DNA of 64,000 nucleotides from Longimicrobiales bacterium (GTDB taxonomy: Bacteria > Gemmatimonadota > Gemmatimonadetes > Longimicrobiales > Gaopeijiaceae): contig CAXXKM010000003.1 in the NCBI GenBank assembly GCA_963664435.2, positions 320,001 through 384,000 on the forward strand. The letters are read 5' to 3'. Below the pieces are notes generated by a model. The model saw only the letters and a list, made by a program, of their open reading frames with translations, did not search any database and was not told the origin of the DNA. Shown piece by piece: positions 45,853 to 50,894 of this stretch (within the stretch, counting starts at the first letter, position 1; the number at the start of each line of letters is the position of its first letter). A program made the position numbers and the translations under genes.

Positions 45853-46057
45853 CGCTCGCTCATCAGCTCCACAAGCCGCTCCACGCAGATGTTCCATCCC
45901 ACTTCGTGCCCTTCCCTGTCCTCCGGAGTGGGAAAGCCCTCGTGGGAAAGCCGGACTTCGGTGCCGTCCTCGGCCCGCGCGAACTCTACCGTCACCAGGG
46001 TCTCCGCCCTCATCGGGTGCGGCTCCTTCCAGCTCCAAGTGTAAGCCAGCCGACGCG
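45849..46057 (-). pseudogene. 3' half of interrupted SRPBCC/AHA1-family gene
   Basis: RRLAYTWSW..ETLVTVEF..GTEVRLSHEGF..HEVGW..L. Confidence 0.88.
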
Positions 46058-46151
46058 ACATGATTAGTCGATTTTGCAACTCGTTGTAATCAGTGAACTT
46101 GCGAGTTTCGTGGGCCGGATTCCCGCCGAATGATTCCCGCTGACCGGGATT

Positions 46152-47315
46152 TCAGCCGCGAACGTTTCTGCGGCCTTCCAGTGCCGTCCTGAGTTGTCCG
46201 GCGTCCGGCCTCTGGTAACACCTGAGCACCGTCTGTGCATCCTTCCACCCGCCAAGCTCACATAGCACCTTGAGCGGAAGGTCCATCAGGTCGCTGGCGA
46301 ACTTGCGCCTCAGCGAGTGCCAGCCCCGCCGCGGCTTCGGCTCCAGTCCCGCGAGCGTCTGGGCCTTCCTCCACCACTGAAAGGCGGTAACGCGGTGCAT
46401 GCACCGCGTGGCATCCTTCGACGAAGGCAGTACCGGCGTGTTGCCTTTCCCGGTGCCCATCCCGCGCGCTTCCTCCAAGGCGGCGAGGGCCTCGTCGGTC
46501 AGCGGCGTGACGTGCTCGTAGCCCGTCTTCTCGTGTTCCGCCCGCCAGCGTACTTCACGGCCCTCGAAGTCGATGTCCTCCCACCTGAGGTTGCGGATGG
46601 CTCCGATTCGGTGCCCGGTTTCGTGCGCGAGCACGAGGGCGACGTGGAACCGCCAACCGACCTGCCGCGAAACCCCGAGCATTGCCCGGTACTCGTCCTC
46701 GGTGAGGACGACCCGGGCGGGGTTCTTCTCCCTGGGCTTCCTGAGGCCCTTCAGCGGGTTCCTGTCGAGCAACAGGCGGCCCCGCTCGTCCTTCGACCTC
46801 TCGGCCCAGTTGAAGACCGCCATGAGGAACGTCAGGTCCCACTCGATCGTCCGGTTGCCCACGGGCCTGCCCGAACGGCCGGCCCTTCCGGCCCGGCGCG
46901 CTTGGATGAACCGATCCCAATCGCGCTGTGAGAAGGTGGCGGGGTCGCGGTCCCGTCCGAAGAAGTCGAGGAACATCGCGGTCGCGACCCTGTCGCGCTC
47001 GCGCGTCCGCTTCCCCTTGGTCGGGGTGACCTCCTCTCCGTAAATGTCAAAGAGCGTGCCCAGAGTGAGCGGCTCGGGCTCGGCCTCGGCCTTGCCGTTG
47101 GGCTCGTGGACCGCGAAGCCCGCGGCGGCCTCGTCGGCCTGCCGCTTCGCGCGAGCCCAATCGCGGTGCCCCAGCGACCGGCTCCGCCTGCGCCCGTTCT
47201 CCCTCCACTCGATCTGGAGCAGGCCGGTTTTCGGATCCGGAAACACCCGGACCCGGTTCCGGCCCCATTCTCCGGCGCTGTAGCTGCGCCGGCTTCGTTT
47301 CGTGCGTGCCATCAT
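46152..47315 (-). CDS. Tyrosine recombinase/integrase
   Basis: Catalytic R (TGHRIG), K (EKTG), HSLR, GGW, Y (RCYQ); GGAGGA RBS; N-terminal arm-binding-like region. Confidence 0.95.
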   Translation of the reverse strand: MMARTKRSRRSYSAGEWGRNRVRVFPDPKTGLLQIEWRENGRRRSRSLGHRDWARAKRQADEAAAGFAVHEPNGKAEAEPEPLTLGTLFDIYGEEVTPTKGKRTRERDRVATAMFLDFFGRDRDPATFSQRDWDRFIQARRAGRAGRSGRPVGNRTIEWDLTFLMAVFNWAERSKDERGRLLLDRNPLKGLRKPREKNPARVVLTEDEYRAMLGVSRQVGWRFHVALVLAHETGHRIGAIRNLRWEDIDFEGREVRWRAEHEKTGYEHVTPLTDEALAALEEARGMGTGKGNTPVLPSSKDATRCMHRVTAFQWWRKAQTLAGLEPKPRRGWHSLRRKFASDLMDLPLKVLCELGGWKDAQTVLRCYQRPDAGQLRTALEGRRNVRG

Positions 47316-48529
47316 TCGATTCCTCCGAGTGATGGACTGCACGATCCGCCTGCCCGAAAGCTCGCGGGGAAGCGGCTTGTCCGCCAGTCGCGTGCGGAAG
47401 GCGGTTTCCGGCCCCGAAACCGCCACCGGGGCCGTAGCGGGAGTGTCCGTCCGACATCGGAGGCGGGCGGACACGAAAACGTCCTCTCAGCGGACACGCC
47501 CGCGATTCCCAATGTCGCTGCCCAACTTTCGGTTGCGAGATGGCCACGGGAGCGGCCGTGGCGCGCGGGAGCCTGCGGGAGTGACCGGAGCAACCCCCCT
47601 CTTTCGATGCCTGGCGTGCCATCGGGGAGGATCGACATGGACAGGCCCATGCCGTCCTCCGAGGGAGGGTTGCTCCGGTCCAGCGATCCTTGGCAGGAAG
47701 GCTTTCAAGACAGAATGGGCGAGCGCGTGCGGAGCACTCCGTCCGCGACCGTGGCCTGCCTCTCCCTTGCGGTGAGGGGCGGCCGGCTCGGACCCTCGTT
47801 CGGGCGGCGGGTCTCCCGGCGTCCGAACGAGGGTGGGCAAGCGAAGCGCGGCAGCCCGGTCCGGGGCCGGGAGGTTCTGGTCGAGGGCCGGAGCGAGGAT
47901 CTCGACCGATACCAGAAGGGCGAGCGGGCCGTGCGCCGACAGCGCCCGGTAAATCGAGCGTGCGGCACGCGACCGGTGGCGAACCCGGTTCCCGTCAAGC
48001 GAACGGCAACCATGGTCGTGCGGGCGGCCACCCGATCGGGATGGGCCGCCACGGGGGGACGGGGGGCGACGCCCCCGCCCGCGCAATCCACCGGAGCGCG
48101 GGTCTGTTGGGGATCGAAGGGGCAACGTCCCTCGCCAGCCCGAATGTATTACTTCGGGTAGGCTGGCTTGTGCGCCTAACGGTGCTCCAAGCCAGCCCTG
48201 CGGCCGCCCCGCAAGAGACGCTCCCGCGAGCCGCCCGAGAAGGCGGTGGCCGGGCTGTCGCGGGCAAGCTCCTCAGGCCTCTCGGTTGTCGACCGCACGG
48301 ACGGCGGGAGGCAACGGGCAACCCGTCACTTCTTTGCGACGGCGGCGCTCCGAGCCGCGCACCGATTTCACCCTACTCCCTCCTCGGAGACCCGGGGGCT
48401 CGTCGGTCCTGGGCGATCCTACGGCCGTAGGTTTTTCGAAGACCAGTCCGGCGCGCCGCCTCTGGAGGGTCACCGGGAAGGTGACGGGCTTCCGCTATCC
48501 GACAGCGGTGCGCCGGACTGAGTGAAGGC

Positions 48530-49084
48530 CTACGTGGTCACTCGGCCCTGGAAGTAGCAGAACCCGCCGGCGTTGGTCCAGAACGTGATGTCCGTCAGCC
48601 GATTGGAATTCCACTTGACGTACCGCACTGCCAAGCTGCTCGTGTTGGTGTCCGGGTCGTAGGTCCAAGGGGAACCGGAATGGTCACCGTACCTGCTCCA
48701 CCGCGTTCCCGCGATGTAGTAGCAGGCGTTCGTGTTGGTCCCAGTTCTGCCGTCAATGCGTTTGCAGTCGCCCCCGGACGCGACGCCGACGCCATTGTTG
48801 CCGGGGGGACTCGCGTTCGTGAAGTAGACGCGGAAGTGATGGCCGTGGCTGGCGGTCCGCCCCGGCACCGTCACGTTCAGATCACCGAGGAGAGTGTTGG
48901 TCAGGTCGCGGTCCAGCGACACTTCGCAGCTCCCAGCCTTGGCGTCGGCGGCGGTCTGCGTCGCGGCGAGCCTCTCGCCCTCGACGGGCGTGGCGTTCTG
49001 GTCGGCGGGGATCGCCTCGGTCGGCATGTCGGCGCACGAGGACAGCGCCACGGCGGACAGGGCACAGAGGATGGTCTTCTTCAT
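48530..49084 (-). CDS. Hypothetical lipoprotein (element cargo)
   Basis: MKKTILCALSAVALSSC lipobox, AAGGAGAG RBS, four further Cys. Confidence 0.75.
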   Translation of the reverse strand: MKKTILCALSAVALSSCADMPTEAIPADQNATPVEGERLAATQTAADAKAGSCEVSLDRDLTNTLLGDLNVTVPGRTASHGHHFRVYFTNASPPGNNGVGVASGGDCKRIDGRTGTNTNACYYIAGTRWSRYGDHSGSPWTYDPDTNTSSLAVRYVKWNSNRLTDITFWTNAGGFCYFQGRVTT

Positions 49085-49685
49085 CGCTTCTCTCCTTGGG
49101 TCGGGGGGTGTTTGAAGTGGTTGATGTCGGATAGGTGAGCCCATCGGGCATCCCTTGACACGAAAATCAGGCGGAACGTGTCGCCGGGACCCAATCCGCT
49201 GGGGATCAGCGCCCAGTCGTCGGGCACCACGGTGGCGTTCTGCTGCCGGGCCTGCATGGCCATGGCGTTGGCTGCGACGGGGAGCGGCACGTCGGCCAAG
49301 GACAGCTCGGCTTCGTCGGCGAACGGCGCGGCGGTCGGGATCTCGCCGCACGAGACGCCTGCAAGGCCAGCCAAGAGGAACGGGAACGCCCGAAGCGGGC
49401 GGCGCTCCGCTAGCGGCGGAGCCGGTTCCGTGGTTGGAAGGGTGCCGCAGGCGTCGCCGCGGCGGAAGGAATCAGGCGGAGCGGCTAGAAGCCGAAGGCG
49501 CTTCCATCGAGACGTACGACAGGCTCGGCTCGGCTCGGCTCGGCTCGGCTCGGCTCGGCTCGGCTCGGCTCGGCTCGGCTCGGCTCGGCTCGGCTCGGCT
49601 CGGCTCGGCTCGGCTCGGCTCGGCTCGGCTCGGCTCGGCTCGGCTCGGCTCTTAACGGTGCTGCGTAATCGATACCCATGGCCAT
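49081..49685 (-). pseudogene. Putative phase-variable secreted-protein gene, out of frame across an SSR and apparently 3'-truncated
   Basis: RBS GGAGGGAG and ATG 49685; SSR; downstream frame gives FPFLLAGLAGVSC and VPDDWALIPSGLGPGDTFRLIFVS. Confidence 0.65.
49522..49651. repeat. Perfect pentanucleotide SSR (GGCTC)26
   Basis: 130 bp uninterrupted. Confidence 0.98.
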
Positions 49686-49725
49686 GTCAACTCCCTCCGC
49701 TACCATCGGCTCCTCAGGACCATGA

Positions 49726-49755
49726 AAGATAACCGACCGTTCCCGCCGGGAGCAA
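49726..49755 (-). promoter_or_regulatory. sigma70-type promoter upstream of the SSR-containing gene
   Basis: TTGCTC-N18-TATCTT on minus strand, ~40 nt before ATG 49685. Confidence 0.5.
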
Positions 49756-50166
49756 ACTACTCCCCCGGGTGACCGGCGGAGTTCCGGAGAAAGCGGCCGC
49801 TCCCGAATCGGGCGGCGCGTTTGGGTTGGGCTAGTGGCCAGCGCCGCCTCGGCGACCTCCGTCCATCGACACGCGGAGCATGTCCCGGTTATCGGCGGTG
49901 CAAGTGTCCCGGAACGGCGAGTCCCGCGCAGTATGGGCGGTGCCGTTCGCCTCGGGAGCGACGAGGGAGTCGTCCGCGTCGCCAACGCCCCGAATCCCCT
50001 CGGATCCGTGTCGGGCGGCTCCCTCGATTTCCCGTCAAACGATTCCGGCTTTCCGGTCATTCCGGCACGATCCAGCAAGATCCAGCACAACGGCAGAAAG
50101 GGCGGATCATGCAGTCCTGTATGACTTTAGATGATTCCCTGCCGTGATTCTGGCCTCTGGCGTTCC

Positions 50167-50407
50167 GCCGACGCGGCGGATCGACCTCGCGGTAGGTGCC
50201 GTGGGCGGTCACGTGACCGTCCTCGACCTCCAGGCAAATCGAGTAGCGCCCGCCTACGCGCAGATCGACATCCACCTCCACACCCGCGCTCGGATCGGGA
50301 TGCGTCCAGCGTTCCACTTTCTCTCTGCCGGTCCAGGCCGCGAAGACCTGCTCGGGCGTTGCCGGGATGGTGCTGAGAAGGTGCAGGGATGTCGAGTTGC
50401 GACTCAT
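50167..50407 (-). pseudogene. 5' half of interrupted SRPBCC/AHA1-family gene
   Basis: PATPEQVFAAWT..RW..DLRVGGRY..GTYREVDPPRR. Confidence 0.88.
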
Positions 50408-50451: not shown

Positions 50452-50640
50452 GTGAGGCGGGCCAGACGATACGCCAGACGAGCCGACCTGGAGGTACGCT
50501 TCGACCCCAGCCGCGGCAAGGGAAGCCATGGGTTGCTCTACCTCGGAGAGCATCGCACGGTCGTAAAGCGCGGCGAACTGCGCCGGGGCACGTTTCGAGC
50601 AATGCTGAAGCAGCTGGATGTCCGGGAGGAGGACTTGTGA
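50452..50640 (+). CDS. hicA: HicA-family toxin (original start possibly lost)
   Basis: RGKGSH motif, GTFRAMLKQL. Confidence 0.8.
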   Translation: MRRARRYARRADLEVRFDPSRGKGSHGLLYLGEHRTVVKRGELRRGTFRAMLKQLDVREEDL

Positions 50641-50894
50641 TGCGGTACGCCTATCCATGTGAGATGACCCCTGAGGCGGACGGCGGGTACTCTGTCTCGT
50701 TTCCGGACGTGCCGGAAGCCTTGACCTGCGGCGACGATCAGGTCGAAGCACTGGCTATGGCGGAAGACGCGCTGGCGGTTGCGCTTGGGGCCTACGTTCG
50801 TGCCCGGGAGGACATCCCGACGCCGGGACCTCTGCTGCCTGGGCAGGTCATGGTTGCGGTACCGTCGGCGGTGGCGGCCAAGCTCGCGACGTAG
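50640..50894 (+). CDS. hicB: HicB-family antitoxin, ends before the C-terminal HTH
   Basis: GGYSVSFPDVPEALTCGD..EALAMAEDAL..IPTP, ends at AAKLAT. Confidence 0.85.
   Translation: MRYAYPCEMTPEADGGYSVSFPDVPEALTCGDDQVEALAMAEDALAVALGAYVRAREDIPTPGPLLPGQVMVAVPSAVAAKLAT

Follow-up and report, generated by a model that had tools for sequence, protein, structure and literature searches.

Does a pure tract of 26 GGCTC units carried by a small integrative element act as a phase switch and, if so, which gene would it switch? Repeat-driven phase variation is familiar mainly from mucosal pathogens. The locus considered here lies in the window, that is, the whole 64-kb stretch of Longimicrobiales DNA that was analysed, and a first-pass annotation had described it as a slipped-strand frameshift switch in the cargo gene of the element, currently OFF.

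The tract and its reading frames

The tract occupies positions 49522..49651 and consists of exactly 26.0 GGCTC units with 100% matches. On the coding (minus) strand it reads (GAGCC)26, and translation agrees with the earlier statement that the repeat is free of stops and encodes AEPSR in every frame. The ribosome-binding site and ATG 49685 that were said to lead into the tract are present on the minus strand. The ribosome-binding site was placed at 49691..49698 by alignment of related leaders, and the short translated leader, starting from ATG 49685 or 49679, at 49652..49685 by translation and leader alignment; a further in-frame ATG is found at 49706. With 26 units we obtained a peptide of 66 aa that ends at the expected stop codon (49487-49485), and with 27 units the frame closes after 72 aa at 49474-49472, within a CCTGA motif shared with other tracts (minus strand, 49472..49487 for the two early stops). 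With 25 units, in contrast, the leader is fused to a stop-free frame of 199 aa that runs to 49081, where its stop overlaps the ATG of the lipoprotein gene, again as first reported. The frame is accordingly open at 3k+1 units, and it follows by arithmetic that 22 or 28 units would open it as well. As to the tract being currently OFF, the frame is indeed closed at 26 units, but the state is that of one assembly consensus only. The locus thus holds a pure non-triplet repeat in the 5′ coding region behind a ribosome-binding site and start codon, as expected of phase variation by frameshifting simple sequence repeats.

As had been proposed, the genome that holds the window (G000; 4.5 Mb, 3 contigs, 68% G+C) was searched for further tracts of the same unit. 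It contains four pentamer arrays of more than four units, all of them GGCTC/GAGCC and 18-26 units long (about 23, 18, 22 and 26), and no other. Four long arrays of one unit only in a whole genome argue that the tract is more than a product of chance. Each of the four lies behind a related leader and ahead of a different gene. In the family of the window organism, at least six units of the repeat are present in 9 of 251 genomes. The short-read assemblies L004 and L006 end at the tract. Both flanks of the tract and the junctions into it were recovered in independent public contigs from five runs; these contigs break at the tract and hence carry no tract length. Contigs of a run labelled as a sponge metagenome match the window stretch. 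A 10-base gap in one X1 contig was considered as evidence on the tract and discarded as irrelevant, since it lies at the edge of the stretch.

The carrier element

The tract is carried by an element of 4.1 kb (46049-50175) that splits an AHSA1/SRPBCC gene. The element is bounded by a 9-bp direct repeat, with the left copy at 46049..46057, where the host gene resumes, and the right copy at 50167..50175, beyond which the 5′ half of the host gene is found and where contig ends fall at 50168-50177. It encodes a tyrosine recombinase on the minus strand (46152..47474; PF00589, E 1.3e-21). The host gene is whole in G003, G005 and G007, and three relatives of the element in G005 occupy other sites with 9-bp duplications of their own. 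In addition, public contigs join the same element end to other flanks. The integrase, the 9-bp end duplication and the unoccupied site of three relatives support the description of the locus as a mobile cassette.

At window positions 48134-48170 lies an empty copy of a hairpin repeat whose inverted arms enclose about 20 nt, and 11 of 12 pattern matches in G000 are copies alike. Two of the G005 elements, L022 and L023, are inserted into this hairpin, which hence looks like the preferred target of the integrase family; the element in the window thus carries a copy of the hairpin target inside itself. Just upstream of L022 and L023 a second integrase gene is found in opposite orientation, and related elements stack side by side. 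At 50452-50891 of the window, adjoining the split AHSA1 gene and divergent from it, we identified a toxin-antitoxin pair consisting of a HicA-like protein (62 aa) and a short HicB-like protein (84 aa), the latter apparently without its C-terminal part.

Length change and exchange at the tract

Two pairs of sister copies differ in tract length. L022 and L023 carry 32 and 43 units and show 0 differences in 520 nt upstream and 4500 nt downstream, while the tract at G000 C3:15385 and its counterpart in G011 carry 22 and 41 units, and 7200 nt of their flanks contain 3 differences (99.9% identity). The pairs differ by 11 and 19 units, respectively, and each consists of one ON and one OFF copy, so that a difference in repeat number between near-identical copies separates the two states, as observed for sister copies only. 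The G000 paralog of the window locus and its G005 relative both carry 18 units (flank identity 90-92%). All eight tracts of G000 and G005 are pure and long (18-43 units), and L024 alone has a single interruption. From the differing lengths between near-identical flanks, the tract is likely hypermutable, and the sequence comparisons make it probable that it constitutes a hypermutable frameshift tract that is translated. Both strands of the tract are predicted to fold as bulged G-C hairpins, with -26 kcal/mol calculated for 26 units of DNA, unlike the unit of the Neisseria opa genes, for which no fold is predicted. Special hairpin strength was considered as the reason for the use of this unit and rejected, as GAGCC ranks only 42 of 204 pentamer classes.

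The 520 nt upstream of the tract in the window are 90% identical to those of L022/L023. The DNA directly after the tract in L022/L023 is 98% identical to that after the tract at G000 C3:15385, whose leader differs, and L255 and L266 are identical over 1300 nt behind the tract and have upstream DNA that is not alignable. Because the shared DNA lies on one side only, with its edge exactly at the tract, the crossover maps to the tract, and we infer that recombination occurs inside it. Long identical tracts are thus likely to serve as crossover joints for the exchange of leaders and genes. Leaders compared across phyla showed only matches of 11-30 nt, too short to establish common descent.

The ON-phase frame

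In the ON phase, the frame after the tract (49081..49521, minus strand) encodes an R/P/A-rich linker, a hydrophobic stretch with a Cys (about 49385-49348) and, from about 49227, a truncated surface-protein domain. The C-terminal 60 residues align with the beginning of a domain that occurs in large FN3/Calx-beta/cadherin proteins (8 matches, 25-42% of the query, best E 7e-15). In L037, this domain immediately follows the signal peptide encoded by a tract-led gene (E 2e-10), while the frame in the window holds its first ~45 residues and then breaks off. Compared with the G000 paralog, the ON frame shows 10 synonymous and 16 non-synonymous codon differences, and against the lipobox consensus its lipobox is imperfect, with Gly at -3. 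In the G005 sister copy, a +1 frameshift lies directly behind the Cys, and the frame continues into the lipoprotein instead. Several copies of the Gemmatimonadota type are truncated behind the signal peptide, and an intact form of the relic was not found in the genus, where it occurs in 2 of 19 genomes and every copy is truncated. Truncation, drift, the imperfect lipobox and the G005 frameshift together indicate that the ON frame is a relic. The view that the tract heads an intact cargo gene of the element must therefore be abandoned, and an intact exported surface protein, as expected downstream of a frameshift phase switch, is absent from the ON frame of the window. In L037, the tract ahead of the secreted FN3/cadherin gene with the domain of the relic is composite, CCGAA units passing straight into CCGAG units.

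The lipoprotein and its possible control

The likely output of the switch is an orphan lipoprotein of 184 aa with a canonical lipobox, encoded by an open reading frame at 48530..49084 on the minus strand (LPAM_1 match weak, E 0.06). We identified five homologs besides the protein itself. Searches gave no confident Pfam match and no Atlas match, and the AlphaFold model (pLDDT 47) consists mostly of strands. The last 45 codons also occur as stray fragments at G000 C2:139733-139867 and C3:60870-61004 and at G005 C1:4784110-4784244, and the one fragment inspected for its surroundings adjoins a short-chain-dehydrogenase-like ORF.

As the ON frame is a relic, any effect of the tract is likely to fall on the lipoprotein. 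No intrinsic terminator-like site was found on the minus strand from 49521 to 49085, so either translational coupling or Rho polarity would have to act. The lipoprotein ATG is predicted to be paired (unpaired probability 0.01-0.06), and Rho is encoded in G000. The 120 nt after the tract are C-rich, within the top 5% of the genome, and C-richness was also observed after 32 of 34 tracts elsewhere, though this could simply reflect Pro/Arg/Ala/Leu codons. A second rho-like match, below the family cut-off, is located at G000 C3:794239-795342. A frame that reaches the next start is kept in three of four Gemmatimonadota-type cassettes (none in L087); shuffled sequences yielded such a frame in 17% of cases for the window and in 21% and 58% for the other two cassette types. 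In the sister cassette type, three indels of 2, 3 and 4 nt sum to 9 nt and leave the read-through frame intact, which by our estimate would occur by chance about 1 time in 6. On these grounds of sequence, we consider the odds roughly even that the switch controls the lipoprotein in the window copy by translational coupling or Rho polarity.

The evidence for a relic also feeds an alternative in which the locus as a whole is decaying, such that the tract slips but the lipoprotein is made from its own ribosome-binding site whatever the phase, and nothing useful is switched. The truncated and drifting ON frame, the frameshift behind the Cys in G005 and the Gemmatimonadota-type copies truncated behind the signal peptide all fit such decay, and the lipoprotein does have a strong ribosome-binding site of its own (49092..49097, minus strand, read from the sequence, with the start codon predicted to be paired). 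Decay of this kind is opposed by tracts that have stayed pure and long at eight G000/G005 loci, by a frame to the next start in three of four cassette types and by the retained promoter, ribosome-binding site and start codon, and we regard it as unlikely.

Tracts in other genomes

A scan of GTDB for eight units returned at least 115 stretches, 80 of which were analysed. Among the loci listed, 22 of 72 showed, past the tract on the GAGCC strand, an open frame with a hydrophobic stretch resembling an export signal; for the other side the count was 2 of 73. The hydrophobicity test behind these counts gives false positives (L088 is an MFS transporter). A ribosome-binding site and ATG open into the tract were identified at 16 of the 20 listed export-signal loci for which sufficient upstream sequence was available, from 11 genomes, compared with 4/50 control promoters of G000, 4/45 other tracts and a shuffle mean of 3.7. 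By their titles, these 11 genomes belong to Gamma- and Alphaproteobacteria, Acidobacteriota, Nitrospirales, Entotheonella and Longimicrobiales. Entotheonella, Multivorans and similar taxa are presumably sponge symbionts.

Five of these 11 genomes, picked because they already showed the layout and searched for three of the five possible tract-start patterns, contained 34 tracts (14, 10, 5, 4 and 1). An export signal followed 32 of these tracts (1 on the other side), and a leader with ribosome-binding site and ATG preceded 32 of 34. Between the tract and the hydrophobic core, 13 of 32 genes in these chosen genomes lack any ATG, GTG or TTG. The number of tracts in frame, and hence ON, was 8/30, not different from one third. 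Pfam matches were obtained for 16 of 18 downstream frames, mostly to FN3, cadherin, Ig, PKD, Calx-beta, LRR and CARDB domains. Since the loci are paralogs and kin, these cross-genome counts overstate independence and are descriptive. L076 and L082 carry cassettes homologous to that of the window. The layout as counted here nevertheless lends support to the slipped-strand frameshift switch, read from the upstream ATG, that was put forward in the first-pass annotation.

Clusters of tract-led surface genes were observed at G280 C1:710862-719069 and 2111406-2123497, with three and four genes within 8-12 kb; beyond the tract some of them hardly differ in sequence, and the clusters resemble tandem arrays of switchable paralogs. 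The tract at G000 C1:1470116 leads toward a repeat-rich Ig-like lipoprotein and an ORF of 1415 aa; across this locus, L024 and L076 the lipoprotein starts with GTG, TTG or ATG and varies in its number of internal repeats. The repeat is present in 20 viral stretches, and the full layout was not found among them (0/20 with an export-signal frame). In Saccharibacillus, gut Firmicutes and two viral contigs (L033, L043, L050, L053, L055, L056, L061, L221 and L224), the repeat lies a few nucleotides past a canonical sigma-70 promoter (2-5 nt in Saccharibacillus and some gut Firmicutes), mostly without a leader of ribosome-binding site and ATG and without an export-signal frame, and may possibly represent a separate, untranslated use of the same unit.

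Translation of the leader and promoter-like sites

Two promoter-like sites were identified in the window, one on either side of the leader ATG and both on the minus strand. The upstream sigma-70-like candidate (49726..49755) consists of a -35-like box at 49755-49750 and a -10-like box at 49731-49726 with an 18-nt spacer. By eye, 11 of 11 aligned family leaders keep it with spacers of 17-18 nt and both key -10 bases, in line with the promoter-like box that had been noticed upstream of the ATG; a consensus promoter scan of this region listed 0 promoters, this box included. The second pair (49655..49690) combines TTGACA at 49690-49685 with a -10-like hexamer at 49667-49662 (17 nt) or at 49660-49655 (24 nt), and would place the RNA start at the tract, downstream of the ATG. 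Such TTGACA/-10-like pairs, 16-25 nt apart and just before the tract, occur in the window and in 22 other leaders across phyla, often with the ribosome-binding site directly 5′ of TTGAC and the ATG directly 3′. A degenerate leader pattern gave 0 matches in a metagenome contig collection.

The conserved second pair keeps alive an alternative in which TTGACA and its -10 box form a real promoter, the length of the tract in the 5′ untranslated region tunes the level or stability of the mRNA, and the ATG is incidental. TTGAC within 45 nt upstream of the tract was found at 11 of 20 export-signal loci compared with 2/72 on the other side; for a -10-like box no more than 10 nt from the tract, the counts were 11 of 20 and 6/72 (among the GTDB loci listed). 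The mostly leaderless tracts of Saccharibacillus and some gut Firmicutes described above agree with such a use. The spacing, however, is 17-18 nt in gut Firmicutes, whose tracts begin at the likely start of transcription, but often 20-24 nt, and in most cases 20-25 nt, in symbiont-type leaders, which is too long for sigma-70. The 17-nt option in the window (49667-49662) is missing its final T, a base retained at 20 of 40 TTGAC-17-TA sites in G000. Promoters of the CarD type, which do without this T, were considered and rejected, as no stand-alone CarD was found in G000 and the one match lies within a frame of 1208 aa. The predicted fold of the leader RNA is no better than that of shuffled sequences (z 0.51); the minimum free energy structure pairs the repeats mainly with themselves, and the centroid leaves them unpaired.

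Several observations point to translation through the tract. The start codon of the leader is kept (one ATG has changed to GTG) and stops are absent from the leaders. The pooled leaders show 25 synonymous and 41 non-synonymous changes, a ratio of about 0.52 (p is about 0.009 when transitions are not corrected for). Of 68 OFF frames, 53 reach a stop within 25 codons, compared with 1244/3108 in a control set of long G000 ORFs that includes spurious ones. A CCTGA-type motif, whose stop always lies in the same off frame, was found in 13 of 22 representative linkers against 3.1 expected, and the stop reached at 27 units in the window is one of these. Leader conservation, the closure of OFF frames and the genes with no start codon behind the tract jointly favour frameshift switching over a repeat that is purely untranslated, and a tract that only tunes the mRNA is in our view improbable, somewhat more so than decay of the locus. 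A tract that is a neutral microsatellite or an artefact of the assembly and regulates nothing, for which one might cite the 50 of 72 listed GTDB tracts of this unit without an export-signal frame and a tract length known from assembly alone, is very improbable, given the independent contigs with both flanks and the tract junctions, and is largely refuted by layout statistics in which strand, leader and signal-peptide bias are far above controls.

Proposed mechanism and significance

The explanation that best accounts for the locus, to which we assign a probability of roughly 0.6, is a slipped-strand frameshift switch whose own target has become a relic in the window, so that the switch would now act on the lipoprotein. 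Transcription would start from the upstream promoter (49755-49726) and translation from ATG 49685 or 49679 would proceed through the tract, where slippage during replication would add or remove repeat units. At 3k+1 units, ribosomes would continue for 146 codons beyond the tract and terminate at the start of the lipoprotein; they would thereby open its start codon, which is predicted to be paired, and protect the C-rich leader from Rho. At other unit counts, termination would come 11-15 codons beyond the tract, and less lipoprotein would be made. In relatives with an intact gene, this switch would join the leader to a signal peptide that belongs to a giant FN3/cadherin/Ig/LRR surface protein.

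A broader hypothesis, which we offer tentatively and consider doubtful in its full extent, is that sponge symbionts of at least five phyla share a portable module in which the pentamer tract is both a frameshift switch and a universal recombination joint. Promoter-leaders and surface genes would be shuffled at this joint and spread on small integrative elements, and after decay of the gene a phase-variable leader ORF would, by coupling and Rho polarity, gate the gene that follows. A second promoter at the edge of the tract would drive or tune its instability.

In uncultured and probably sponge-dwelling symbionts of several phyla, as many as 14 surface-protein genes in a genome, encoding FN3, cadherin, Ig, PKD, Calx-beta and LRR proteins, appear to be gated by one repeat unit. 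Some eukaryotic-like proteins are reported to let bacteria survive phagocytosis by sponges, although the one cadherin protein tested there had no effect (PMC13747020). If the frameshift switch is true, the ON/OFF state of the surface repertoire of a symbiont would be readable from long reads, and selection by host or phage could be tested in field samples. We also predict that annotation pipelines miss or mis-start most tract-led genes, because about three quarters of these are out of frame and 13/32 have no start after the tract.

Comparison with known systems

In Neisseria opa genes, the CTCTT unit itself encodes the hydrophobic core of the signal peptide (PMC13183285), and in autA and autB, two genes of the human-associated genera Neisseria and Haemophilus, AAGC tetranucleotide repeats are found (PMC5118866). 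The cassette resembles opa and autB in that the reading frame of a surface protein depends on a repeat located behind the start codon (PMC13183285, PMC5118866). It differs from opa by its GAGCC unit, by a polar AEPSR spacer ahead of the signal peptide, by unrelated protein families and by its occurrence in five phyla; Pfam searches gave no Opa family match among the downstream proteins. From autA/autB it differs by leader swapping and a mobile cassette, neither of which appears in the portion of the autA/autB account consulted (PMC5118866).

The closest model for the window copy is the leader of the Streptococcus gallolyticus pil1 locus. In pil1/pil3, 22 GCAGA repeats lie in a short leader ORF; the length of this ORF varies with the frame and controls a surface gene that lies separately downstream (PMC3894217). 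Both systems combine a pentamer repeat, a short leader ORF and a separately started surface gene. The pil1 leader uses an intrinsic terminator (PMC3894217), whereas none was found here between the tract and the lipoprotein, and the leader in the window is the relic of a surface-protein gene. For a repeat in the 5′ untranslated region, and for the Firmicutes-type tracts, the model is instead Haemophilus influenzae hmw1A, where a heptamer repeat lies in the 5′ UTR near the transcription start of the adhesin gene and acts as a non-coding rheostat that requires a hairpin between the repeat and a G-rich sequence as well as RNase III (PMC12721329). In the tracts described here, by contrast, a conserved leader with ribosome-binding site and ATG crosses the repeat, and no such hairpin stands out. 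A single pentamer unit common to unrelated genes across the bacterial domain, environmental organisms included, has been described for the GCACA-repeat type III mod genes (PMC5909438); these have a different unit and encode methyltransferases, and GAGCC is absent from the main text of that paper.

Searches of the openly accessible literature gave no published description of a GAGCC-tract cassette. What is added here is a controlled test of the leader, ON/OFF pairs with identical flanks, the swapping of sequences at the tract, the element that carries the cassette and the recognition of the ON frame as a relic. With its other unit, polar spacer, lack of a terminator and unrelated targets, the cassette is a member of neither group, yet it works like opa/autB and, in the window copy, like pil1.
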